A stretch of DNA of 61,423 nt from an uncultured Rickettsiales bacterium (GTDB taxonomy: Bacteria > Pseudomonadota > Alphaproteobacteria > Rickettsiales > SXRF01), in assembly GCA_964624555.1 (NCBI GenBank), contig CAZUXB010000001.1, positions 1 to 61,423 on the forward strand, read 5' to 3'. Each line of letters starts with the position of its first letter. The stretch's first letter is position 1. Both the position numbers and the translations under genes were made by a program. Below are positions 9,239-45,924 of this stretch, in pieces. The notes under the pieces were generated by a model. The model was not told where the DNA came from and did not search any database. It saw nothing but the letters and a program-made list of their open reading frames with translations.

Positions 9239-9833
9239 CTACTACCGGCGGAGTGGATAATGATGGGGTTGGAGGATATAGTTTTTCAGAGAAAGCTAGC
9301 AAACGCTGGCGATAAATTTCTACAATTTCATTGATACCGTGGCTACGTGCATCCTGTTCAGAAACATATGTAGAAAAATATTTGTTATTTGGATTGTTAT
9401 AGCTGGTCACATTACTGATAGCTCCTCTATCTACTACCTTATTATCCGATAAACGGATAAGCCTGTAATTTGAAGCTATTGACAGGTTATAACGTGTCGC
9501 TGTTCCGTCACGCGCAACCCCTACCCCGCTTATTGACTGGGCCAATTGCACTTCCAGTTTATAGGTCGGGGCATCAGATGCTCCCACAACGTCTTCCAGC
9601 TTATTTGTAAACTGCCTGACCAGAAACTTACCTGCACTATCATCTATCGTGATATTATTCTCTGATGATGCCCTGCCAGCAGCATTGGCCGCAATTTGTA
9701 TTCCCGCCCGCAAAACAGACTGCCCGGCAGTGGTTGATTCCTTGCTATACACCGCATGAAAACCGCAGGAGCTAAGGAGCAGGCAGACAACAGGCAATAG
9801 GCAACAGACCTTATATTTATGCAATAACAACAT
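9213..9833 (-). CDS. lptE: LPS-assembly lipoprotein LptE
   Basis: 206 aa. Lipobox LLSSCGF. Lies between leuS and holA with overlaps on both sides, which is the conserved synteny. Confidence 0.7.
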   Translation of the reverse strand: MLLLHKYKVCCLLPVVCLLLSSCGFHAVYSKESTTAGQSVLRAGIQIAANAAGRASSENNITIDDSAGKFLVRQFTNKLEDVVGASDAPTYKLEVQLAQSISGVGVARDGTATRYNLSIASNYRLIRLSDNKVVDRGAISNVTSYNNPNNKYFSTYVSEQDARSHGINEIVEIYRQRLLAFSEKLYPPTPSLSTPPVVDETCPKVC

Positions 9834-12369
9834 TCACAATCCTGTTCGGTACAACGATGACCTTGTTTATGGTTTTGCCTTTGAGCAGTTCGCTGATGGC
9901 AGGAACAGCAAGCGCCTCTTCCTCCGCCAGTTTCTTATCTGCATCTTTAGGCAATTCGACAGTCGCCCGTAATTTTCCATTTATTTGTATAGCAATCGTG
10001 ATGCTATCGTCAACGAGCCATTTGCTATCAGCTACCGGCCACGGCCTGTCAGCTATCATATCCTTGTTACCAAGCCGCTGCCATAATTCTTCGGAAATAT
10101 GTGGCATAAAAGGATTTATAAGATGGATAGCGGCGATGATAGCTTCAAGGCGCACCTCTTTCGTAGCGGCAGTAAGCGGAGTATCTTCCACCATGTTGGT
10201 AAGTTCGCGGATACGGGCGATGGCCTTGTTGAAATGGAATTTTTGCAAGTCATCGGTAACGGCAGCGATGGTTTTGTTTGTTGCTTTACGTAAGTTATCA
10301 GTCGTCGGTTGTCGGTTGTCGGTTTTTTCTTCTGACAACTGACCACTGACCACTGACGACTGAACTAAGCGCCACAGACGATTGATATACCGCCACGCCC
10401 CTTCAATACCAGCATCGGTCCATTCCAGATCACGCTCTGGCGGGCTGTCGGAAAGCATGAACAGGCGCGCAGCATCCACACCATAGGTTTCGATGATGTG
10501 GCGCGGGTCGATGGTATTTTTCTTCGACTTGCTCATCTTCTCAATGCGGCCAACAACCACTTCCTTACCGGTAGAAATTTCTACCAGCTTGCCCATATCA
10601 TTTTTAGTAATCTCGTCCGGCGTTACCCATTTGCCTTCGGCATTTTTATAAGTCTCATGCGAGATCATGCCCTGTGTTTCAAGGCGTTTGAACGGTTCTT
10701 CGAGCGCAAGCAAACCACATTTTTTCAGGGCACGGGTGAAGAAGCGCGAATAAAGCAGATGCAACACCGCATGCTCAATGCCGCCGATATAGCAATCCAC
10801 GCCATCTTTGAGCCAGTAATCAAGAACGGTTTTCTCCAGTGGCTCTGCACTCGGCAATGTCGCATAGCGCAGAAAATACCATGATGATTCGAAGAAGGTA
10901 TCGAACGTGTCGGTTTCGCGGCGCGCGGCTTTACTACATTTCGGGCAGCTTACATTTTTCCAGGTCGGGTGATGCTCCAGAGGATTTCCCGGCTTGTCGA
11001 ATTTCACATCTTTCGGCAGCTCGACCGGCAAATCTTTTTCCGGTACCGGAACGGTTCCGCAAGTTTCGCAGTGGATAATAGGTATCGGACAACCCCAGTA
11101 GCGCTGGCGGGAAATACCCCAGTCGCGCAGGCGGTAATTTATTTTTTCCTTGCCAGCGCCAATTTTTTCCAGTTCGACAATGGCTTTTTTCTTTGCAGCG
11201 TCAACCGGCAAACCATTTAGGAAATGCGAGTTAATGGCAACGCCATCGCCGGTATAAGGCAGCGGCTCATCGGTGTTGCCTGCACTCACTACCGGAAGTA
11301 TCGGCAGGTGATATTTGCTGGCAAAATCAAAGTCGCGCTGGTCATGCGCCGGGCAGCCGAATATCGCGCCGGTACCGTAATCCATCAACACGAAATTAGC
11401 AATGAACAGCGGCACTTCGCGCTCTTCAAATGGATGCTTTATTTTGAGCCCGGTATCGAAACCTTTTTTCTCGGCCTTTTCGATGGCTTCCTCGCTGGTG
11501 CCGAGTTGGTTGCATTCAGCAATGAAAGTTGCTAGTTGCTGGTTGCCAGTTGCTAGTGAAGTAGATATCGGATGGTTCGCGGCAATGGCGCAGAATGACA
11601 TGCCGAAGATGGTATCTGGTCGCGTGGTATAGATATCCAGATATTCTTCTTTGCCGGAAATTTTAAGGCGCAAACTCGCACCACTGGATTTCCCTATCCA
11701 GCGATCCTGCATAATGCGCACTTTATCCGGCCATTCTTTGAGCGTGTTGAGTCCGGCGAGCAAGTCGTCAGCGAAATCAGAAATGCGCAGGAACCACTGC
11801 GAAAGCTTGCGGCGCTCGACCAGTGCGCCACTGCGCCAGCCCCTGCCCTCTATCACCTGCTCATTGGCGAGCACGGTTTGGTCGACCGGGTCCCAGTTCA
11901 CTTCCGCTTCTTTGCGATAGGCCAAACCATTCTGCAGAAATTTCAGGAAGAATAATTGTTCGTGCTTGTAATATTCGGGCAGGCAGGTGGCCAGTTCGCG
12001 CGACCAGTCATAAGAAAGTCCGATAAGCTTTAATTGCTCACGCATGGTATCGATGTTGGCCAGTGTCCAGGTTTCCGGATGGGAATTATTCTGGATAGCC
12101 GCATTTTCAGCAGGAAGGCCAAAAGCATCCCAGCCCATCGGATGCAACACATTATAGCCCTGTGCGCGCTTGCTACGGGCTACCACATCACCCAGCGTAT
12201 AGTTGCGCACATGCCCCATATGGATGTTGCCCGATGGATAGGGAAACATCTCCAGCACATAGTATTTAGGCTTTTTGCTTTCCGAGGTTGCGGCAAAGGT
12301 TTTGTTTTTCTGCCAATAATCCTGCCATTTGGCTTCGGTTTCGCGGAAATTATAGCGGGTTGGTTCCAT
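9817..12369 (-). CDS. leuS: Leucyl-tRNA synthetase
   Basis: 850 aa. HIGH-type motif GNIHMGHVRNY, KMSKSKKN, and an editing-domain insertion. Confidence 0.97.
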   Translation of the reverse strand: MEPTRYNFRETEAKWQDYWQKNKTFAATSESKKPKYYVLEMFPYPSGNIHMGHVRNYTLGDVVARSKRAQGYNVLHPMGWDAFGLPAENAAIQNNSHPETWTLANIDTMREQLKLIGLSYDWSRELATCLPEYYKHEQLFFLKFLQNGLAYRKEAEVNWDPVDQTVLANEQVIEGRGWRSGALVERRKLSQWFLRISDFADDLLAGLNTLKEWPDKVRIMQDRWIGKSSGASLRLKISGKEEYLDIYTTRPDTIFGMSFCAIAANHPISTSLATGNQQLATFIAECNQLGTSEEAIEKAEKKGFDTGLKIKHPFEEREVPLFIANFVLMDYGTGAIFGCPAHDQRDFDFASKYHLPILPVVSAGNTDEPLPYTGDGVAINSHFLNGLPVDAAKKKAIVELEKIGAGKEKINYRLRDWGISRQRYWGCPIPIIHCETCGTVPVPEKDLPVELPKDVKFDKPGNPLEHHPTWKNVSCPKCSKAARRETDTFDTFFESSWYFLRYATLPSAEPLEKTVLDYWLKDGVDCYIGGIEHAVLHLLYSRFFTRALKKCGLLALEEPFKRLETQGMISHETYKNAEGKWVTPDEITKNDMGKLVEISTGKEVVVGRIEKMSKSKKNTIDPRHIIETYGVDAARLFMLSDSPPERDLEWTDAGIEGAWRYINRLWRLVQSSVVSGQLSEEKTDNRQPTTDNLRKATNKTIAAVTDDLQKFHFNKAIARIRELTNMVEDTPLTAATKEVRLEAIIAAIHLINPFMPHISEELWQRLGNKDMIADRPWPVADSKWLVDDSITIAIQINGKLRATVELPKDADKKLAEEEALAVPAISELLKGKTINKVIVVPNRIVNVVIA
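10298..10363. repeat. Short-period hairpin element, in frame inside leuS
   Basis: Left arm TCAGTCGTC(GGTTGTC)x2GGTT, 8-nt loop, right arm TGACAACTGACCACTGACCACTGACGACTGA. The outer 9 bp pair perfectly and the rest pairs with G:T wobbles. Translated as SSVVSGQLSEEKTDNRQPTTDN. Confidence 0.85.
11528..11558. repeat. Four tandem degenerate heptamers (GTTGCNN) inside leuS
   Basis: GTTGCTA GTTGCTG GTTGCCA GTTGCTA GTG, translated on the minus strand as LATGNQQLAT. Resembles the arm of the 27185-27250 hairpin. No inverted partner seen nearby. Confidence 0.7.
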
Positions 12370-12371
12370 AG

Positions 12372-12448
12372 TTAGTGGTGAGTGGTGAGTGGCAAGTGGT
12401 GAGTAATTAAATTTTTCTAATCACTTATCACTCGCTACTTACCACTAC
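12372..12448. repeat. Short-period hairpin element filling the DUF3576-leuS intergenic gap
   Basis: Left arm (AGTGGTG)x2 AGTGGCA AGTGGTG AGT. Reverse complement of the right arm is AGTGGTA AGTAGCG AGTGATA AGTGA. About 21/28 positions pair (more with G:T) around a loop of about 21 nt. Confidence 0.85.
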
Positions 12449-14582: not shown

Positions 14583-15260
14583 ATGGACAACAATATAAGT
14601 ATAGAAAAAAGTCTATCAATTCTCTCTACTAACATAGAGAAAGCGCGTAAGTCATCCCCAATAGCCGCAAATGGGGTTGCCTTACTTGCCGCAAGCAAGG
14701 CACAGCCAATTGCCGTTATAGAGGAAGCAATAGGCGCTGGGGTTAGCTGTTTCGGGGAAAACCGGGTACAGGAAGCGCAGGAAAAATGGCCGGAACTGAA
14801 AAAGCGCCACCCCAGCATAACTCTACATCTAATAGGGCCGTTACAAACCAACAAGGTAAAACAGGCCCTTTCCCTGTTCGATGTTATACAGACTTTGGAC
14901 AGGCCACAGCTTGCCGAAGAGATAGCAAGGCTTGAGGCTTTAGGAATGAGCCTTGAGGGAAAGAAGTTCTTTATTCAAATAAATACCGGCAAAGAACCAC
15001 AGAAATCGGGAGTTTTCCCAGAAAATGCCGACTCCTTTATACATATGTGCAGGGAGCTTAAATTACCGGTAGTTGGTTTAATGTGCGTCCCCCCAGTGGA
15101 TCAGCCACCTGCCCCGCATTTTGCCCTGCTGCGCGAAATTGCCCTGAAAAACAACCTTAGCGAACTGAGCATGGGTATGAGCAGTGATTTTGAAACAGCG
15201 GTACGCATGGGCTCAAGCTGTGTACGCATCGGCACGGCACTGTTTGGCGACAGAAAATAA
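14583..15260 (+). CDS. yggS: YggS-family PLP-binding homeostasis protein
   Basis: 225 aa. Motifs LLAASKAQP, GENRVQEA, HLIGPLQTNKVK, SMGMSSDFETAVRMGSSCVRIGTALFG. Confidence 0.9.
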   Translation: MDNNISIEKSLSILSTNIEKARKSSPIAANGVALLAASKAQPIAVIEEAIGAGVSCFGENRVQEAQEKWPELKKRHPSITLHLIGPLQTNKVKQALSLFDVIQTLDRPQLAEEIARLEALGMSLEGKKFFIQINTGKEPQKSGVFPENADSFIHMCRELKLPVVGLMCVPPVDQPPAPHFALLREIALKNNLSELSMGMSSDFETAVRMGSSCVRIGTALFGDRK

Positions 15261-18363: not shown

Positions 18364-19420
18364 CCCCGGCTCCACAATCGGTATTTTAGGTGGTGGACAA
18401 CTCGGAAGAATGATGGCCATAGCCGCCGCCGAAATGGGCTATAATGTTCACATCTACTGCCCGGAAAAAGACTGCCCCGCCAGCGAAGTTGCCGCATTTA
18501 CCACTGTCGGTGCGTATGATGACGTGAAGGCTCTGGAGAAATTTGCCGGAAGCGTTGATGTCATAACCTACGAATTCGAGAACATACCTTCTGATCCTAT
18601 ATTTACCATAGCTAAGGTAAAAGATATTTTCCCATCCCCAGAAATATTGGCCGTGTCCCAGCACCGTATCCTCGAAAAACAGGCGGTGAACAAGATGGGC
18701 ATAGCGACTGCGCCATTTAAGGCTGTTTCATCACACGCCGAACTGCTTGCTGCCACTAAAACCCTAGGCTTTCCGTGCATCCTTAAAACCGCAACCATGG
18801 GCTATGATGGCAAGGGGCAATTTCTGCTGCGAGGACCCGAGGACTTTAGTACTCAAGTACTCGATTTCTCAAGTCCTCTAATTCTCGAAGGCTTCGTCAA
18901 TTTCAGCATGGAGATATCAGTCATAGTCGCGCGTGGCAGGAATGGCGATATCAAATGCTACACGCCAGTGCAGAATATCCACAAACACCATATTTTGAGC
19001 GAAACCATCGCCCCCGCGCCGATATCAGAAAAACTGGCAAATGAAGCGGAGAATATCGCAAAAAAAATCGCGCTGGAATTGGGGCTGGTCGGGTTGCTTG
19101 CGATTGAAATGTTCGTGACCAATGACGAAAAAATAATTGTGAATGAAATCGCACCGCGCCCACATAATTCCGGGCATTGGACAATAGACGCCTGCGTCAC
19201 CAGCCAGTTCGAACAAGTCATCCGCGCCGTATGTGGCCTCAAACTGGGAAATCCTGCCCGCCTTTGTGATGCGCGTATGCTGAACCTGATTGGTGATGAC
19301 ATAAATGACTGGGAAAAATACACCAAAACGGAAAACGCAAAATTACATCTCTACGGCAAAAAAGAAACAAAACCCGGCCGCAAGATGGGGCATGTCACAT
19401 TTTTAGGCAGTAGTGAATAG
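18356..19420 (+). CDS. purK: N5-CAIR synthetase PurK
   Basis: 354 aa ATP-grasp protein. Motifs [28 protein letters not shown]. Overlaps purE by 8 nt. Confidence 0.93.
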
Positions 19421-19480
19421 GCATTAGGCCATAGTGATTTTATCTTTACCAATGCCTACTGCCCACTGCCTATTGCCTAA
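19403..19480. repeat. Short-period hairpin element between convergent purK and cobS
   Basis: Left arm TTAGGCA GTAGTGA ATAGGCA TTAGGCC ATAGTG. Reverse complement of the right arm is TTAGGCA ATAGGCA GTGGGCA GTAGGCA TTGG. About 21/30 positions match. The arms cover both stop codons. Confidence 0.8.
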
Positions 19481-22956: not shown

Positions 22957-24141
22957 TTACCTATCAATCTCCCCAAACACCACGTCCATGGTGCCGATGA
23001 TGGCGACCACATCGGCAAGCATGTGGCCTTTGCTCATCATTTCCAGTGCCTGTAAGTGCGCGAAGCCGGGAGCTTTTATCTTGCAGCGGTAGGGTTTGTT
23101 GGTGCCGTCAGCCACTAAGTACACACCGAACTCGCCTTTCGGCGCTTCCACGGCAGTGTAGGTTTCGCCGACCGGCACGTGGTAGCCTTCGCTGTAGAGT
23201 TTGAAATGGTGGATGAGCGCTTCCATCGATTGCTTCATGAGGGCGCGTTTCGGCGGCGCGATCTTCGGGTCGCCGGTAACCACCGGCCCTTCCGGCATCT
23301 GCTCCACGCACTGGCGGATTATTTTCATGGACTGGCGCATTTCTTCCATGCGCACGAGGTAGCGGTCATAACAGTCGCCATTCTTGCCGATGGGTATGTC
23401 GAAATCTAGCTTATCATAGCAATCATAAGGCTGGGCCTTGCGCAAATCCCACGCTATGCCGGAACCACGCAGCATTGCGCCGGAAAAACCCCAATCCTGC
23501 GCCTGTTTGGCGGTAACCACGCCGATATCCACGAGGCGCTGTTTGAAGATGCGGTTCTCGGACAGGAGGTCGTCCACGTCATCGACATATTTCTTAAAAC
23601 CATCGACAAATTTGAGCACGTCTTCATTGAGGCCGCGCGGTATATCCTGATGCACCCCACCCGGGCGGATGTACGCCGAGTGGAAGCGCGCGCCCGATGC
23701 GCGCTCATAAAATTCGATGATCTTTTCGCGCTCTTCAAAGAGCCATAATAGCGGTGTCATTGCCCCAATATCAAGAGCTTGCGTGGTGATGTTAAGAATA
23801 TGGTTTAAGAGCCGGGTGAGCTCGCAGAACATCACGCGGATGTATTGGGCACGCAGAGGCACCTCGCAACCAAGCAGCTTTTCCACCGCCAGCGAGTAGC
23901 AATGTTCCTGCGCCATGGGGGACACGTAATCAAGCCGGTCGAAATAGGGCAGCGCCTGCAAATAGGTCTTATGTTCTATTAACTTTTCGGTGCCGCGATG
24001 GAGCAGGCCGACATGCGGGTCGGCGCGTTCGATCACCTCCCCGTCCATCTCAAGCACAAGGCGAAGTACGCCATGCGCCGCAGGGTGCTGGGGGCCGAAG
24101 TTTAATGTTGTGGTGGTTTTTTGGTTTGCTTCTTGGGTCAT
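22957..24141 (-). CDS. nuoD: NADH-quinone oxidoreductase subunit D
   Basis: 394 aa. Motifs [15 protein letters not shown], and the C-terminal end ...DVVFGEIDR. Confidence 0.97.
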
Positions 24142-24143
24142 AG

Positions 24144-24551
24144 TTAAACTGGTGTTAGTGTGGGTGTGAGTGTTGGTGTATAAGTATCTAATTTCTTCTC
24201 AAGGGCATTAAATAATCCGCCCAGCAGCCTTCCAATTTCATTACTTACGTCCATAATAGATAAATACGTCGCTTCGTCAATATAACCAAGTCGTTTTGCT
24301 ATAATAATTTGCGTCTCGACTTCAGCAAGTGAGCCTTGAGATATGCCTACAAAGCGCATGTACTCTTTAGTGGTGTGCCTTTTACTACCCTCTGCTATAT
24401 TGGAAGGGACAGATATAACTGCTCTACATAGCTGGTCTATCAGCCTGTATTGCTCTTTTTTAGGAAAGTTATCAGTAATTCTATAAATCATTTCTACCAA
24501 AACCATCGACTGCTGCCAAACTTTCAAATCCTGATAACTTTTTACCATCAC
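24144..24551 (-). CDS. Four-helix-bundle protein, 23S rRNA intervening-sequence protein family (Avd-like)
   Basis: Motifs [49 protein letters not shown]. The likely ATG start is at 24548. The C-terminal [11 protein letters not shown] tail is encoded by the repeat arm. Confidence 0.85.
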
Positions 24552-24579
24552 TCACACCCCCACCAGCACTCACACTACC
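24151..24579. repeat. Inverted-repeat-bounded cassette carrying a four-helix-bundle gene (cassette 1)
   Basis: Left arm 24151-24180 is G/T-only, built of about 6-nt units. Right arm 24549-24579 is CACTCA CACCCC CACCAG CACTCA CACTAC C. Positions 24165-24179 pair with 24561-24575 at 14/15. Confidence 0.8.
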
Positions 24580-25124
24580 TAAAGAAACCTATGCATTATA
24601 TAAACATCGACCAGACCCTCGCTGATATGGTCGAAGCCTTTAGGGATGGTACCTACGATCTTGAAACCAATGGATTTCCACAGATCGACCGCGACCTTGT
24701 TGATGCTCACCACAAAGTTAAACTGCATGGCGAGGTAGCCTTTGGAGCGGGCGAAATCAAGCGCGGCATGGCCGAGCGCGCGGGCGATGCCCATGCGCCG
24801 GCAATCAGGATGCACAAGGAAGGAGGCATTGGCGACATGGTGACCACGGCCAGTGCGGTTCGGGCGAACAGCAGCTATCCCTGCCACTTTCCCGTCAATA
24901 TCCGCAACCAGACAATGGGTTCCAGGCGCCGTCATCAGGTAGGCCATCGAACGGTCCGGAGTCATTTCCTCCAGCGTGTAGGAATAGGTTTTGCCTTCGA
25001 TAAGGACATTGCGGAAAATATCGTATATCTCCTCGAAATCCTCCAGACGCGCCGGACGTATGTTGTAAGATGGGTGCGGTTTGGAATTGGGATTCTGGAT
25101 AAAGAATTTGGCAAGCTTCATCAT
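24579..25124 (-). CDS. GNAT-family N-acetyltransferase
   Basis: 181 aa. Acetyl-CoA site motif RRMGIARALGHAALDFARSKGY. Block NFVVSINKVAVDLWKSIGFKIVGTIP resembles phosphinothricin/MSX-type GNATs. Confidence 0.8.
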   Translation of the reverse strand: MMKLAKFFIQNPNSKPHPSYNIRPARLEDFEEIYDIFRNVLIEGKTYSYTLEEMTPDRSMAYLMTAPGTHCLVADIDGKVAGIAAVRPNRTGRGHHVANASFLVHPDCRRMGIARALGHAALDFARSKGYLAMQFNFVVSINKVAVDLWKSIGFKIVGTIPKGFDHISEGLVDVYIMHRFL

Positions 25125-25697
25125 TTAACTGGCCTTCTCATCACCGGGCAGATGGGTCATGCCTTCCCACGGGCTCATATAATCAAAACTGCGGTAAGCC
25201 TGGTTGAGCTTTACCGGCTCATAGACCACGCGCTTCTGCTCCACGTCATAGCGCATTTCGACGTAACCGGTAAGTGGGAAATCCTTGCGCTGCGGATGGC
25301 CTTCAAAACCGTAATCGGTAAGGATACGGCGCAAATCGGGATGCTCGGAAAATAAGATGCCGTACATGTCCCACGCCTCGCGCTCATACCAACCAGCCGA
25401 AGAAAATATACCAACCACCGAAGGTATTGGGGTTTTCTCATCGGTGCAAACACGTACCCGCACACGCATATTCTGTCTTAAACTAAGAAGTAAATAAACT
25501 GCTTCAAACCTTTGTTCTCGCTCAGGAAAATCAACTCCGGCAATGTCGACAAGCTGGGTGAACTGAGTATCCTGCGAATCGCGCAAAGCAGTAAGCAAAG
25601 GCAACAGTTTGTCACCTTTCACGTTTATCACCTGCTCGTCCCGGATGGTCTCGACAGTAGCGCCAAAACCTTCCAGCCATTTATCTTCAAATATCAT
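25125..25697 (-). CDS. nuoC: NADH-quinone oxidoreductase subunit C
   Basis: 190 aa. Motifs [40 protein letters not shown]. Confidence 0.93.
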
Positions 25698-25703
25698 ATA
25701 ACC

Positions 25704-26294
25704 TCACATCTTTTTTAATTGCCACCGCCCGTTCTCGCTTCCGGGAGTGATGAATTCATACAAACCGCAATTGGCGATCTTTTCCTTGTCTGTGCCTTTA
25801 GCAGAGGCCAGTTCCAGCATCCGGCGGATATTGCCGCCGTGGGTGATGAACAGCGGAACCCCATCCCTAATTTCAAGGTGGTTTGCAATGGCCAGTACCG
25901 TGCGCATACGCAAACTTTCCTTCGATTCCTCACCTTCAATAACCCCACCCGAATTTAGTATCCTGCTCCTTTCAACATCTGCCATTCCTTCGGCCGCACC
26001 ATAAGCCCGCTCGTTGATACCGCTTTCTACAAAATGCGGCAAATCACGCAGCGAACTACAGTCGCATATCAGCTTCGCCGTCTCGATGGTTCTGCGCATT
26101 TCGCTGGTAACCACGTAGGAGATGGCTGGCATTATACCAGCCAGCACGGGCTGCATCAACTGCGCCTGCCTTCTGCCCTCAGTGGTAAGCATGGTATCGC
26201 TCCCTTTACCGCTGACCACCTTGTTTTTATTATCCTCAGTTTCCGCGTGGCGCAGCATGTAAAAATTACGCCCGTGAGGAAATGTAAGGCTCAT
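25704..26294 (-). CDS. Histidine phosphatase superfamily protein (phosphoglycerate-mutase-like)
   Basis: 196 aa. Catalytic RHAET motif near the N-terminus and ITHGG near the C-terminus. Its ATG overlaps the nuoB TGA (ATGA). Confidence 0.8.
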
Positions 26295-26833
26295 CTGATT
26301 ATCGTCCCGGTACGGCGGATCTTCTTCTGCAATTGCAGGATGCCATACATCAGCGCCTCAGCAGTTGGCGGGCAGCCGGGAACATAGATATCAACGGGGA
26401 CGATGCGGTCACAACCGCGCACCACCGAATAGGAATAATGGTAATAACCACCGCCATTGGCGCAGCTTCCCATCGAGATCACGTAGCGCGGTTCGGCCAT
26501 CTGGTCATAAACTTTGCGCAGCGCTGGTGCCATTTTGTTGCACAGCGTTCCAGCGACAATCATCACGTCGGCCTGGCGCGGGCTGGGGCGGAATACCACA
26601 CCCAGATGGTCCATGTCATAACGCGAAGCGGCGGCCTGCATCATCTCTACCGCGCAGCAGGCCAGGCCGAAAGTCATCGGCCACAAGCTGCCAGCACGCG
26701 CCCAGTTAGCCAGAGCATCAAACTTGGTAACGACAAAGCCTTTGTCGCTGTATTCTTCCATCACGTCCTTCAGCAAGGCATCCTGATCGGTAGATTTCAA
26801 TGCTACTCCCATTCCAGAGCTCCTTTTTTCCAC
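26291..26833 (-). CDS. nuoB: NADH-quinone oxidoreductase subunit B
   Basis: Motifs [25 protein letters not shown]. The true start is probably the internal ATG near 26812. Confidence 0.95.
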
Positions 26834-27168
26834 TCATAGATAAAGCCGATGGTAAGCACGCCGAGGAAAACCATCATCGACCAGAAACCAGCTATGCCTA
26901 TCTGTTTGAGCGCGATGGCCCACGGGAATAAAAACGCTACTTCAAGGTCGAAGATGATGAACAATATCGCCACCAGGTAAAAGCGCACATCGAACTTGCC
27001 GCGCGCATCACCAAACGCTTCAAAGCCGCACTCATAGGGCGATACCTTCTCCACGTCAGGCTTCTGGCGGCCTATTACCATCGGCGCAAAAAGCATGATA
27101 AGCGCCAGCCCCACCGCGATGGCAATGAACACTAGAATAGGGAAATACTGGGTTACGACTGCGTCCAT
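26803..27168 (-). CDS. nuoA: NADH-quinone oxidoreductase subunit A
   Basis: 121 aa with three TM segments. Motifs YECGFE and [14 protein letters not shown]. Confidence 0.93.
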
Positions 27169-27184
27169 ATTTTTTCTTTATTTA

Positions 27185-27250
27185 ATTACTTAGTTACTTG
27201 TTACCAGTTGCCAGTGTTATATAACCGGTAACTAGTATCCAGTAACTAAT
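27185..27250. repeat. Short-period hairpin element in the nuoA/queG divergent intergenic region
   Basis: Left arm ..CTTAGTTAC TTGTTAC CAGTTGC CAGTG. Reverse complement of the right arm is ATTAGTTAC TGGATAC TAGTTAC CGG. Pairing needs register slips and is the weakest in the family. Confidence 0.55.
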
Positions 27251-28948: not shown

Positions 28949-29060
28949 AGATGACGAGATTACAAGATGATAAGATGACGAGATTATTAATAGTATATTT
29001 TAAAGAAAAAACACCTATAATTTACTCATTATGTCTAGTCATCCTGTCATCTCGTCATCC
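28949..29060. repeat. Inverted repeat of 8-nt units bracketing the OMT/recJ divergent control region
   Basis: AGATGACGAGATTACAAGATGATAAGA (28949-28975) matches the reverse complement of 29034-29060 (GGATGACGAGATGACAGGATGACTAGA) at about 22/27. AGATGACGAGATTA also occurs twice in direct orientation. Confidence 0.8.
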
Positions 29061-30809
29061 AGTCAGCCGCTTTCCGCGACTGGTCGCCTGTGGCAACTGC
29101 GCGAAGTCGATGAACGACTTGTTGCCGCTATCGCCCGCGAACATGAGTTGCCGGAAATAATCGCACGGGTGCTGGTAGCGCGTGGGATTGACAGCGAAAA
29201 TGTCGAGGATTTTTTACACCCGACCTTACGTAGCGCATTGCCCGATCCATCGCATCTACTGGATATGGACAAAGGCGTGAAACGCATCGCCGATGCGATA
29301 ATTAAAAAGGAAAAGATCGCGATATTCGGTGATTACGATGTGGACGGGGCGACCTCCGCCGCCCTCCTTGCCCGCTATTTCCGGACGGTTGGTGTAAATC
29401 CGGTTTTATATATTCCCGACCGCATGAAGGAAGGTTACGGCCCCAACACCAAGGCGCTGCTGGAATTGCGCAAGCAAGGTGTAAGTGTGGCCATCACCGT
29501 GGATTGCGGCACGCTGGCGTTTGAACCTCTCGCCGAAGCAAAAAAAGCTGGCCTTGACATGATCGTGGTTGACCACCATCTCGGCGAAGCGAAAAAGCCG
29601 GAAGCGGTTGCTATAATAAATCCTAACCGCCTTGACGAAACATCGCAACACCCGCAACTGGCAGCCGTTGGCGTTGCGTTTTTGCTTTTAATCGCCATAA
29701 ATCGTGAGCTAAGAAATCGCCACTTTTTTACCAGCTTACCGGAGCCGGGTATAATGGAATGGCTGGATATTGTGGCTCTGGGAACAATTTGCGATGTAGT
29801 GCCGCTAACCGGTGTCAACCGCGCACTTGTTGCACAAGGTTTAAAAATCATGGCAGGCAGGCGCAACGTAGGAATTGCAACCGTGCTTGATATGGCGAAG
29901 TCGGAAGAAAAACCCAATGTCTATAGCTGCGGATTCATCATCGGCCCGCGCATCAATGCCGGTGGGCGTGTTGGCAAATCGGATCTGGGAGTCAGGTTGC
30001 TTTCCACCGAAGACCCAGAAGAAGCAAAAAATTTAGCAACGGAACTGGAACAATATAACGCCGAGCGCAAAGCCATAGAGGCGATGGTTCTGGAACAGGC
30101 GATGAGCAAAGCCGAAAGCATGGAGGAGAATCTACCGCTGCTGGTTGTCGCTGGACAAGGCTGGCACCCGGGCGTTATCGGTATTGTAGCAGGGCGCTTG
30201 AAAGACAGGTTCCACAAACCGGTAGCGGTGGTTGCGGTGAATGATGGTGTGGGTAAGGCCTCGGCACGCTCGGTAACCGGGGTTGACCTAGGGGCAGCGG
30301 TTATCGCCGCGCTCGAAGAAGGATTGCTGGTAGCCGGTGGTGGACACGCAATGGCAGCAGGATTTACCGTGGAGGAAGGAAAAATTCCAGCACTCACCGA
30401 GTTCCTCAAAACAAAAATGGACGCAAGCATCCAGCAGATAAACGTGCAGAAAAAATTCATGCTTGATGGAGTGGTGAGTATCGGCGGCGCGAATGTGGAA
30501 CTGCTCGCTCATATGGAAAAGCTCGCACCGTTCGGGCAGGCCAACCCTAATTTGCGCCTATGGATTAAACAGGTGGTGAATCTGCGCTCGGATATTGTCG
30601 GCGAGAACCACATAAAAACCCTGCTCATCGACAAGGTGAGCAATACCAAACTCTCCGCGATATCGTTCCGCAGTGTGGGCACAAAACTCGGCGACGCGCT
30701 GCTTGCATCCTACGGCAAAACCATCGACGTGGCCGGGCAACTGCGCCTCAATGAATGGAATGGAAAACAAAGTGTGGATTTGACTATCGAGGATGTGGTA
30801 ATTGCGTAA
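29031..30809 (+). CDS. recJ: Single-stranded-DNA-specific exonuclease RecJ
   Basis: 592 aa. DHH motifs IFGDYDVDGATS, VDCG, VVDHH, and DHHA1 motif GGGHAMAAG. Confidence 0.93.
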   Translation: MSSHPVISSSSQPLSATGRLWQLREVDERLVAAIAREHELPEIIARVLVARGIDSENVEDFLHPTLRSALPDPSHLLDMDKGVKRIADAIIKKEKIAIFGDYDVDGATSAALLARYFRTVGVNPVLYIPDRMKEGYGPNTKALLELRKQGVSVAITVDCGTLAFEPLAEAKKAGLDMIVVDHHLGEAKKPEAVAIINPNRLDETSQHPQLAAVGVAFLLLIAINRELRNRHFFTSLPEPGIMEWLDIVALGTICDVVPLTGVNRALVAQGLKIMAGRRNVGIATVLDMAKSEEKPNVYSCGFIIGPRINAGGRVGKSDLGVRLLSTEDPEEAKNLATELEQYNAERKAIEAMVLEQAMSKAESMEENLPLLVVAGQGWHPGVIGIVAGRLKDRFHKPVAVVAVNDGVGKASARSVTGVDLGAAVIAALEEGLLVAGGGHAMAAGFTVEEGKIPALTEFLKTKMDASIQQINVQKKFMLDGVVSIGGANVELLAHMEKLAPFGQANPNLRLWIKQVVNLRSDIVGENHIKTLLIDKVSNTKLSAISFRSVGTKLGDALLASYGKTIDVAGQLRLNEWNGKQSVDLTIEDVVIA

Positions 30810-31230
30810 GACGTAAATCGTAAGACGTATTAAGAATCTTTTTCCGTTAAAGAATTTCTTAAGCGATAAAGCATACGGCTGATATCTTCTGCCAAGTTAA
30901 GCATCTCCTGATAAATATTTTCAGCCATATAATTGCGTTGATATGCTAAAATGATCTGCGTCTCCAGCTCTGCCAGAGAGCCGTGCGCAATTTCACAGAA
31001 ACGCCTATAATCGGCTTTACTGCCACGAATACTTCCTTCAGCTATATTTGATGCAATAGACACAGCCGCCCCTTGCATCTGATTAGCCAGTGCATAAACT
31101 TCATTTTTGGGGAACTGTGACGTAGCATCGTAAATTTTATTAGCAAGCAGAATGGCTTTATTCCAGACATCGAGTTGCCGATAATTTTTAAAAGCCATAT
31201 TTTAGCCGCCTTACGTCTTACGATTTACGT
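30806..31230. repeat. Inverted-repeat-bounded cassette carrying a four-helix-bundle gene (cassette 2)
   Basis: Left arm is GTAAGAC GTAAATC GTAAGAC GTA (30806-30829). ACGTAAATCGTAAGACGTA is the perfect 19-nt reverse complement of TACGTCTTACGATTTACGT in the right arm (31210-31230). Confidence 0.9.
30830..31198 (-). CDS. Four-helix-bundle protein, 23S rRNA intervening-sequence protein family (Avd-like)
   Basis: 122 aa. Motifs YRQLDVWNKA, FPKNEVYALANQMQGAAVSIASNIAEGS, GSLAELETQIILA. I estimate roughly one third identity to the 24144-24551 protein. Confidence 0.85.
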   Translation of the reverse strand: MAFKNYRQLDVWNKAILLANKIYDATSQFPKNEVYALANQMQGAAVSIASNIAEGSIRGSKADYRRFCEIAHGSLAELETQIILAYQRNYMAENIYQEMLNLAEDISRMLYRLRNSLTEKDS

Positions 31231-31240
31231 TCTACATCCC

Positions 31241-43716: not shown

Positions 43717-45924
43717 CTACGCCATATAATCCGGCAGCCAGCTTTCGTTAACCTTTCTGAGTTCTCTAACCTCTACCGAACTTCCAGCAACGCTAAGTTT
43801 TCCGGCTTCGGTTTTACCAATAACAACTGCTGTAACACCAACAGTTTTTGCAGCCTTAATTATATCCGAAGCATCTTTAGCGGTTAGAATATAGCGGCCC
43901 TGATCTTCACCAAACCAAAAAGCGACATCTCCAGTAACAGTTATATTTGCTCCTATTCCATCCCGGTATGTCATCTCAGCAATGGCGACAAGCAGGCCAC
44001 CATCGGACACATCATGGCAGGCAGTTATTTTGCCAGCCTGAATCAGCGAGCGCACGAAATCGCCATTGGCACGTTCGGCTTTTAGGTCAACCGGTGGCGG
44101 AGCGCCCTCTTCACGGCCTAAGATTTCGCGCAGGTAAAGGGATGCTCCCAAATGGCCTTTAGTTTCGCCAATAACGATGATATCTTCACCAGTAGCAACA
44201 AAGCTGTTTCCGACACGTTTTGTAACATCTTTGAGAATTCCCACGCCGCCGATGGCCGGAGTCGGGAAAATCGCTACACCATTGGTTTCGTTATAGAGCG
44301 ACACATTGCCAGAGATAATCGGGTAATCCAGCGCCCGGCACGCTTCCGCCATACCCTGCAAACACCCTACTATCTGACCCATAATTTCCGGCTTCTGCGG
44401 GTTGCCGAAATTCAGGCAGTTGGTGATGGCCAGTGGCGTGCCACCCACGGCGGTGATGTTGCGCCATGTTTCGGCTACAGCCTGCTTGCCGCCTTCGATG
44501 GGGTCGGCGTAGCAATAGCGTGGTGTGCAGTCGGTAGTTATCGCAAGCGCCTTGTTCGTGCCATGCACACGCACTATTGCACTGTCACCACCGCTACGCG
44601 CAACCGTATCATTACCAACCTGAGAATCATACTGTTCGTATATCCAACGCTTCGATGCGAGGTCGGGACATTGGATTAAGGTTAACAATGCAGTTGTCAG
44701 CGGTCGGTTGTCAGCGGTCAGGAAAGCTTTTTCTGATCGCTGATCGCTGACCGCTGACCGCTTAATTTCATACGGCCTGTCATACACCGGTGCGTCGGTG
44801 GATACTGGCGCTATCGGCATGTCGGCAACCGTTTCGCCATTCATTTTCAGCACAATATTTCCGGTGTCGGTGATTTTTCCGATGGTGGCAAAGGCCAGTT
44901 CCCATTTTTCAAACACCTTGCGTGCAATATGCTCTTTTTCCGGTTTTATTACCATGAGCATGCGTTCCTGCGATTCGGAAAGCATGATTTCATACGGCGT
45001 CATTCCGGTTTCGCGCATCGGCACTTTATCAAGCCACATCTCAATGCCGGTGCCGCCCTTCCCCGCCATTTCCAACGACGATGAAGTGAGGCCCGCCGCG
45101 CCCATATCCTGAATGGCGAGAATAGTGTCTGTCTGCATCAGTTCGAGGCAGGCTTCGATGAGAAGTTTTTCTGTGAATGGATCGCCCACCTGCACGGTCG
45201 GGCGTTTTTCTTCCGACGCATCGTCGAATTCAGCGGAGGCCATGGTCGCACCGTGAATACCGTCGCGCCCGGTCTTGGAACCGACATAGACCACGCTGTT
45301 GCCAACACCGGCAGCTGCCGAGTAAAATATCTTGTCCGTCTGCGCGATACCAACGGTCATGGCGTTGACCAGAATATTTCCGTTATAGGAGGAATGGAAA
45401 TTGCACTCGCCACCAACGGTTGGAACACCAACGCAATTACCGTAGCTGCCAATTCCAGCAACCACGCCGGAGAGCAGATGTTTGGTTTTCGGGTGCGATG
45501 GGTCGCCAAATCGCAGCGCGTTCATATTCGCAATAGGGCGCGCGCCCATAGTGAACACGTCGCGCAGAATTCCGCCCACGCCGGTAGCAGCACCCTGGAA
45601 CGGTTCGATGTAGGATGGGTGATTGTGCGATTCCATTTTAAATATCGCCGCCTGCCCGTCACCGATATCAATGACACCAGCATTTTCACCGGGGCCGCAA
45701 ATGACCCACGGCGCTTCGGTAGGCAGGCCGCGCAGGAGCTCGTGCGCGATTGTATAGGAGCAATGCTCACTCCACATCACCGAGAAAATACCAAGCTCGA
45801 CAAGGTTCGGTTCGCGACCCAATGTTTTCAGCACACGCTGGTATTCCTCGGGCGTTAATCCATGTTGGGCAACGATTTCATCAGTGATTTTTTGTGTGGT
45901 TTTTTTTGCAGTAGCGCTTTGCAT
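43717..45924 (-). CDS. purL: Phosphoribosylformylglycinamidine synthase subunit PurL
   Basis: 735 aa. Motifs SEHCSY, ESHNHPS, and duplicated AIR-synthase-like domains. Confidence 0.95.
44691..44761. repeat. Short-period hairpin element, in frame inside purL
   Basis: Left arm GTTGTCA GCGGTCG GTTGTCA GCGGTCA GG. Reverse complement of the right arm is (GCGGTCA)x2 (GCGATCA)x2 G. Several pairing registers are possible. Translated as [22 protein letters not shown]. Confidence 0.85.

Follow-up and report, generated by a model that had tools for sequence, protein, structure and literature searches.

A PF05635 cassette with complementary repeat arms at a nuo operon junction of a Rickettsiales bacterium resembles the intervening sequences of 23S rRNA

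Why should a small four-helix-bundle gene lie inside the complex I operon of an uncultured Rickettsiales bacterium, and why should it be enclosed by an inverted repeat? The locus belongs to a stretch of 61,423 nt, which was analysed as a whole and is called the window here. An earlier note, made from the letters of this DNA, had seen at this place the design of the intervening sequences (IVS) of 23S rRNA, with an ORF between inverted repeats, transposed to an mRNA. The arms, the predicted stem and the protein family described below support that view. In the order of the minus strand, the locus reads as follows:

26803-27168, minus strand: nuoA, first in the order
26291-26833, minus strand: nuoB, after nuoA
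25704-26294, minus strand: histidine-phosphatase gene, between nuoB and nuoC
25125-25697, minus strand: nuoC, upstream of the GNAT gene
24579-25124, minus strand: GNAT acetyltransferase gene, upstream neighbour of the cassette; stop codon 24579-24581
24544-24578, minus strand: 5' arm of the cassette, a run of degenerate GTGNNN units that is rich in G and T on the transcript (GUAGUGUGAGUGCUGGUGGGGGUGUGAGUGAUGGU)
24144-24551 from GTG, or 24144-24548 from ATG, minus strand: four-helix-bundle ORF of the cassette (PF05635/TIGR02436)
24149-24188, minus strand: 3' arm, C/A-rich on the transcript (…ACACCAACACUCACACCCACACUAACACCAG), within the end of the ORF and complementing the 5' arm
22957-24141, minus strand: nuoD, downstream neighbour; ATG 24139-24141

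The histidine-phosphatase and GNAT genes are extra genes of the nuo operon in this lineage, the latter lodged between nuoC and nuoD. The cassette ORF occupies the gap between GNAT and nuoD in the same orientation as the nuo genes, and its stop codon TAA (24144-24146) is followed on the minus strand by CT and then by the nuoD ATG, which has no recognisable Shine-Dalgarno sequence. These gene boundaries show the ORF to be spliced into a stop/start chain that runs from GNAT through the cassette ORF to nuoD. Scans of the nuo locus for promoters and terminators stayed at chance level, and this, together with the co-orientation, suggests that the cassette is co-transcribed with nuo. Its G+C content is 0.39-0.41, against 0.52-0.58 in the flanks. 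A search of the window against Rfam gave no match, rRNA included, and a reading of the cassette as a known RNA family was dropped; PADLOC gave no defence-system match, which leaves a defence-system reading without support from that tool.

The cassette protein has 135 aa when read from GTG 24551 and 134 aa from ATG 24548, the ATG being the likely start codon, as in the orthologues. It matches the PF05635 profile at 1e-38 (132.2 bits; cut-off 33.8) and TIGR02436 at 1.3e-35 (121.9 bits; cut-off 24), and its residues 5-118 match XCC0516 (PDB 2gsc_A), a solved four-helix bundle, at 3.2e-27. Membership in PF05635/TIGR02436 thus follows from curated cut-offs that are exceeded and from homology to a solved member, and the profile search bears out the earlier description of a 135-aa family protein filling the space between GNAT and nuoD. 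The named relatives of the protein come from Alphaproteobacteria and Rickettsiales MAGs. Its own protein database entry (P0001) has 120 aa (24144-24506) and starts at an internal Met, a start that was probably called too late, since the Pfam match already covers the 135-aa ORF from residue 7 onwards.

The 5' arm begins one base past the GNAT stop codon and spans the ribosome-binding region and start codon of the cassette, and the 3' arm is translated as the last 11 residues of the protein, just as the earlier note had read it. The complementary arms have outer extents of 24149-24188 and 24533-24578; over an alignment of 37 nt (24152-24188 against 24533-24569) they are 76% complementary, and a core of 24164-24178 with 24561-24575 matches at 14/15. 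The earlier note had found this 14/15 pairing, with the right-hand coordinates correct and the left-hand ones (24165-24179) one base off. Its degenerate 6-nt units are recovered by Tandem Repeats Finder as a period of 6/12 at 24151-24179. Between the outer arm ends the nuo cassette measures 430 nt. When the minus-strand transcript was folded across 24120-24600, as the note had proposed, the minimum-energy structure paired the arms and closed a long-range stem, with a modest z-score of -2.87. Complementary termini forming a stem around the ORF are thus present in the alignment and in the predicted fold, and they recur in the orthologues presented below.

Imperfect arms (76% over 37 nt) and a modest z-score might also be expected if an ordinary small gene merely happened to be flanked by an inverted repeat, the tail of the protein then being a low-complexity linker. 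As chance controls, 2410 placements of the same geometry were scored along the window. The Smith-Waterman score of the true arms was 32 against a control mean of 14.2, and the fraction of placements scoring at least 32 was 0.001. The top-scoring control placement is probably a second cassette of the window:

30805-31235, minus strand: second cassette, flanked by the stop codon of an SDR gene and by the recJ end; PF05635-family member

The ORF of this second cassette (30830-31198, minus strand) encodes 122 aa that are 42% identical to the first (phmmer, all six frames). It is flanked by arms of CGTAAGA/CGTAAAT heptamers (period 7) at 30805-30829 and 31207-31235, whose best pairing, 30806-30829 against 31212-31235, is 92% complementary over 24 nt. 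Hence another family member has a private inverted repeat, a point on which the earlier note had made its proposal depend. The predicted fold of the second cassette is closed by its arms with a z-score of -4.31 (0/100 shuffles). Both cassettes measure 430-431 nt between outer arm ends, and their arms are unrelated to each other.

The window also contains repeat structures devoid of an ORF. Inverted tandem arrays of 7-8-nt units form hairpins, whose loops span ~10-50 nt, at 12374-12447, filling the gap between the upstream gene and leuS, at 19402-19479, adjoining the stop of a CobS-like gene, and at 28949-29065, between divergent genes. The longest recJ ORF starts within a hairpin arm (29031-29065) and its first residues, MSSHPVISSSS, are translated repeat; the true recJ start is probably further downstream. 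Two other heptamer hairpins are in frame, one inside leuS (10298-10363; ORF 9817-12369) and one inside purL (44693-44762; ORF 43717-45924), and the segments that they encode can be aligned with solved LeuRS and PurL either gap-free or with a single gap of 3 residues. This near-gapless alignment indicates that they sit in variable linkers without lengthening the proteins, so that simple insertion does not explain these two hairpins. Solo arrays with a period of 7 or 8 nt and no inverted partner nearby occur at 9784-9807, 11527-11557, 14928-14958 and 27178-27204, one of them inside leuS and one just upstream of nuoA.

Beyond the window, a scan with a family alignment over one genome per species gave 80 loci (L001-L080) from Acidobacteriota, Planctomycetota, Clostridia, CPR, Desulfobacterota, Xanthomonas, Rickettsiales and others; not one of these 80 lay within an rRNA gene. 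The 92 nt around each start were compared with the reverse complement of the stretch from residue 112 to 60 nt past the stop, and the same geometry slid along each locus served as control; these same-locus controls were used in place of a duplex-energy survey, which was confounded by G+C content. Among the 80 scored copies (78 from these loci, with enough flank, and the two of the window), 65 fell in the top 5% of their same-locus controls and 52 beat every one of them, with a mean arm score of 35.3 for the true arms against 14.5 for the controls. The same test revealed a flanking inverted repeat at 22 of 27 distinct loci on viral contigs. The repeat-arm design is general for the PF05635 family outside rRNA. 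The second cassette with its private arms, the controls in the window and at each locus, the viral-contig loci, and the conservation of the arms in orthologues rule out a chance inverted repeat, a reading to which we give practically no credence.

In the 60 clear cases, the arms have a median length of 32 nt, i.e., ~4-5 units, and the element a median length of 460 nt; ~22 nt separate the end of the 5' arm from the start codon, and the 3' arm usually starts around the stop codon. Watson-Crick pairs make up 87% of arm positions. The best repeat period is 7 in 52 of these 60 loci, a tandem heptamer design that the nuo cassette, with its period of 6/12, does not share. In the 5' arm, G outnumbers C at 55 loci and C outnumbers G at 2 (p = 2e-14), and this polarity, G-rich arm first, reads alike on either strand. 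Once phased, the heptamers have a common core, YYAGKRR, across phyla, with an information content of 4.90 bits against 3.79 +/- 0.13 when letters are shuffled within each heptamer. Moreover, arm similarity rises with protein similarity (Mantel r = 0.19, 0/2000 permutations) and near-identical arm types are found in different phyla, which argues that the arms travel with the gene.

Neighbouring genes, called at 59 loci with a simple longest-ORF gene model, place these cassettes in operons. The upstream neighbour was co-oriented in 50 of the 59 loci (baseline at these loci 0.66, p = 0.001), and its stop codon lay a median of 3.5 nt before the 5' arm; co-oriented downstream genes started a median of 10.5 nt after the 3' arm, and the downstream neighbour was convergent in 13 loci. 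From these short distances it appears that the cassettes exactly fill intra-operon spacers, as in the window, and such filling fits a promoterless gene that depends on host transcription. Several contigs (L001, L054, L066, L080 and L081) carry two PF05635 genes within 3 kb; in the first four, the arms of the two copies differ within the contig, and in L081 GNAT lies between the two genes, which are found at 739-1131 and 1687-2046.

The closest homologues of the cassette protein (61-70% identity) are all found at the GNAT-nuoD junction (L161, L163-L166). They share the (GTGNNN)n/(NNNCAC)n arms of the window copy, and in these five orthologues the cassette stop overlaps the nuoD start (ATGA). 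For the six orthologous cassettes, RNAalifold recovers the terminal stem, with 94% of stem cells paired. Pairwise identity of the arms is 0.77-0.78, compared with 0.74 and 0.82 at codon positions 1 and 2 and 0.38 at third positions, which are saturated. Because arm identity is close to that of positions 1 and 2 and far above that of position 3, the protein and the arms, the non-coding 5' arm included, are under purifying selection, which speaks for functional arms, with the caveat that repeats can be aligned in more than one register. Two pairs changed on both sides among the six orthologues, a covariation score reached by 43/500 shuffles, and matched arms paired no better than arms swapped between orthologues. 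Of the conserved, compensated pairing that the earlier note had looked to in orthologous cassettes, the stem and its conservation thus held, and compensatory change did not rise above shuffled alignments. Over the 60 loci with arms, mismatches were divided equally between G:U and A:C (61 vs 61), with no excess of G:U, a pattern more in keeping with mutational noise on a DNA-level repeat than with selection acting on a single strand of RNA.

The junction itself has a varied history. When metagenomes were scanned with the GNAT protein as query, about 25 related contigs proved to have the gene order nuoC-GNAT-nuoD, where the following states were seen at the junction:

empty junction, GNAT stop overlapping or abutting the nuoD start (e.g., TAATG): L089, L098, L100, L102, L127
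empty junction with a short spacer: L085, L110, L146
a PF05635 cassette (two in L081, flanking GNAT)
arm-only remnants, ORF deleted: L084, L086
3' arm and C-terminal stub behind unrelated genes: L082, L083, L101
other small genes, named by eye: a pair resembling DUF4160/DUF2442, a membrane protein, others

A comparison of relatives, as the earlier note had advised, thus uncovers a presence/absence polymorphism with empty, cassette and remnant states, and the interleaving of cassette states on a rough GNAT tree points to repeated loss and replacement at a hot spot. No target-site duplication was recognisable by comparison with the empty sites, where age may have erased it. In this lineage, the window copy has long resided at the GNAT-nuoD junction. 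Some nuoA-nuoB gaps of relatives (L081-L103) also hold varying small genes, and the ORF-less hairpins of the window look like the arm-only remnants of L084 and L086.

Where the junction is empty, the GNAT stop and the nuoD start overlap or are at most about 18 nt apart, and this proximity suggests a possible role of the stem in translation. With stop and start held at the base of one helix, terminating ribosomes would re-initiate on nuoD across the cassette and so keep a coupling of the TAATG type, which would agree with arms placed so near the flanking stop and start codons throughout the family (medians of 3.5 and 10.5 nt) and with a nuoD that has no Shine-Dalgarno sequence at the window locus. 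However, tight gaps are trivially expected of any unit inserted into a short spacer within an operon, the cassette ORF itself already provides a coupling to nuoD in this lineage (ATGA in the five orthologues), which makes the stem unneeded, and many cassettes (13/59) face a convergent downstream neighbour, so that we regard such a role as distinctly unlikely.

Weighing these observations together, we lean, with some confidence, towards a model in which the nuo cassette is a widespread, horizontally spreading, promoterless unit of the IVS type, whose arms pair on RNA and most likely form a substrate of RNase III. The unit would consist of a G-rich tandem-repeat arm, a short leader, the PF05635 gene and a complementary C-rich arm, ~420-490 nt in all, and would correspond in kind to the ORF-bearing IVS of 23S rRNA, lodged here in an operon junction. 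On transcripts free of ribosomes, the arms would pair as an imperfect duplex of ~26-37 bp closing a loop of ~345-380 nt, and this duplex would be a functional RNA element, most likely cleaved by RNase III as for the Coxiella and Leptospira IVS. Such cleavage may cut the cassette from the nuo transcript, or may tune the output of the cassette protein and nuoD. In the folded form, the upstream stop and the downstream start would come to lie at the base of one stem, and arm pairing could thereby juxtapose the flanking cistrons. The uncoupling of nuoD from nuoABC, also considered in the earlier note, is the outcome that we favour least, since nuoD, lacking a recognisable Shine-Dalgarno sequence, is stop/start coupled to the cassette ORF, which speaks for integration into the coupling chain rather than for uncoupling.

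Several observations temper this model. Because the 3' arm is translated and the 5' arm directly follows the GNAT stop, the stem should often be held open by translating ribosomes. The equal numbers of G:U and A:C mismatches count against long-term selection on sense-RNA pairing alone. The similar ORF-less hairpins in leuS and purL, where cleavage by RNase III would do harm, also weigh against it, as do the covariation in orthologues, which stayed within the range of shuffles, and the 6-nt, not 7-nt, period of the arms of the nuo cassette.

The closest known counterpart of the nuo cassette is the 23S rRNA IVS of Coxiella burnetii and Leptospira, with which it has the protein family PF05635 in common. 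In Coxiella, the IVS has 428-444 nt and a 28-bp stem and is excised by RNase III; the cleavage was demonstrated in vitro, using recombinant RNase III from Coxiella and from E. coli, and is taken to occur in vivo (PMC4990558). The nuo cassette, at 430 nt, is of the same size, has likewise a terminal inverted repeat forming a stem, and is likewise lower in G+C than its host. Co-transcription with the host RNA is established for the rRNA IVS, and co-orientation suggests it for the nuo cassette. Conversely, the nuo cassette sits between the protein-coding genes GNAT and nuoD and not in a 23S helix, and its ORF, which is under purifying selection and coupled to nuoD, differs from that of Coxiella, which is reportedly decaying and untranslated. 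The arms of the nuo cassette are tandem short repeats, here compared with the rRNA IVS by published size and stem length, and excision by RNase III, demonstrated for the Coxiella IVS, is for the nuo cassette a prediction by analogy. Published work calls the PF05635 family uncharacterised and treats the IVS as a feature of rRNA (PMC4990558, PMC11270868, PMC10053308); within the incomplete coverage of our literature search, we found no link between PF05635 outside rRNA and inverted repeat arms.

A real, if lesser, possibility is that the arms act as DNA, being the termini of a mobile element that are made or recognised by recombination or replication machinery, with RNA pairing incidental and arm-only hairpins as non-autonomous, MITE-like derivatives. 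The tracking of protein similarity by arm similarity, even across phyla, would be expected of such termini, as would the presence, absence and remnant states of one junction, the ORF-less hairpins scattered through the window, the arm mismatches without wobble bias and the occurrence of cassettes on viral contigs, and the conserved YYAGKRR core could serve as a recognition motif. Nevertheless, no transposase or integrase was found beside the cassettes and no target-site duplication was recognisable; the divergent paralogues with different arms in one genome argue against recent copy-and-paste, and long purifying selection on arms at a fixed locus would be needless for a dead transposon end. 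By the features that define transposons and MITEs, the cassette has no transposase and no recognisable target-site duplication, and the two copies in the window, far from being near-identical, share 42% identity and differ entirely in their arms. Rickettsia palindromic elements and MITE-like palindromes occur in coding regions, and the window hairpins are similarly tolerated in frame (leuS, purL) and at gene junctions; the leuS and purL hairpins are, in contrast, heptamer arrays that do not lengthen the proteins, and the likeness drawn here is one of form and placement.

The arms might instead be candidate binding sites for the protein of the cassette itself. The protein would form a pentameric barrel, as 2GSC and Avd do, and the family structure is reported as a homopentamer (PMC4990558); on RNA or DNA in single-stranded form, such a pentamer could hold the ~4-5 units of an arm (median 32 nt, period 7), in competition with the stem, for autoregulation or for packaging of its own transcript. 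A core motif conserved across phyla alongside the polar residues NIAEG and E..ETQ, which are invariant in the family proteins, and the correlation of protein and arm similarity agree with such binding. That correlation is equally explained by co-inheritance, and binding leaves the need for a complementary second arm unexplained, so that we consider this role doubtful.

Two other systems invite comparison. The Avd proteins of diversity-generating retroelements have a four-helix-bundle fold and a distant similarity to the cassette protein (PF22296, 3e-8; PHROG 3206, 1.5e-10), which nevertheless scores below the Avd cut-offs (NF033474, 39.8 vs 80; PF22296, 34.5 vs 40). GNAT and nuoD flank the nuo cassette, with neither a reverse transcriptase nor a template/variable repeat pair beside it, and direct repeats nearby are short pairs at chance level; given the scores below cut-off and the lack of a nearby reverse transcriptase, a reading as part of a diversity-generating retroelement was rejected. 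The second comparison is with tandem heptamers, among them the cyanobacterial STRR heptamers, reportedly described by Mazel et al. in 1990. The TAACTGA repeats are intergenic tandem heptamers of Beggiatoaceae, Cyanobacteria and Bacteroidetes (PMC4679880). As here, the 7-nt units of TAACTGA/STRR repeats stand in tandem where genes meet, in many cases immediately before a start codon, and TCAGTTA, the reverse complement of TAACTGA, fits the YYAGKRR core of PF05635 cassettes. They form direct arrays without an associated gene, whereas the PF05635 cassettes have inverted pairs around a gene, and the first cassette of the window differs from them in its 6-nt period.

Relative to the earlier note, our study adds the generality of the design, the heptamer arms, the hot spot of gain and loss, and the coupling to nuoD. 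Taken to its furthest, and as a speculation with only a small chance of being right, PF05635 cassettes may represent a so far unrecognised class of mobile elements, in which a pentameric protein acts on its own heptamer arms (YYAGKRR), bacterial heptamer arrays are non-autonomous offshoots and rRNA IVS are copies that landed in rRNA. If true, the STRR and TAACTGA repeats, the arm-only hairpins of junctions and the hairpins of leuS and purL would all count among these offshoots. PF05635 is a very large family, and knowledge of it comes chiefly from a few IVS of rRNA. If repeat arms are the rule outside rRNA, the rRNA IVS would become a special case of a general operon-junction cassette, heptamer arms with a common core would offer a testable cis element for the activity of the protein, and the origin of bacterial tandem heptamer repeats would become testable as well. 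At the present locus, the expression of nuoD, a core subunit of complex I, would then be threaded through a hitchhiking gene.
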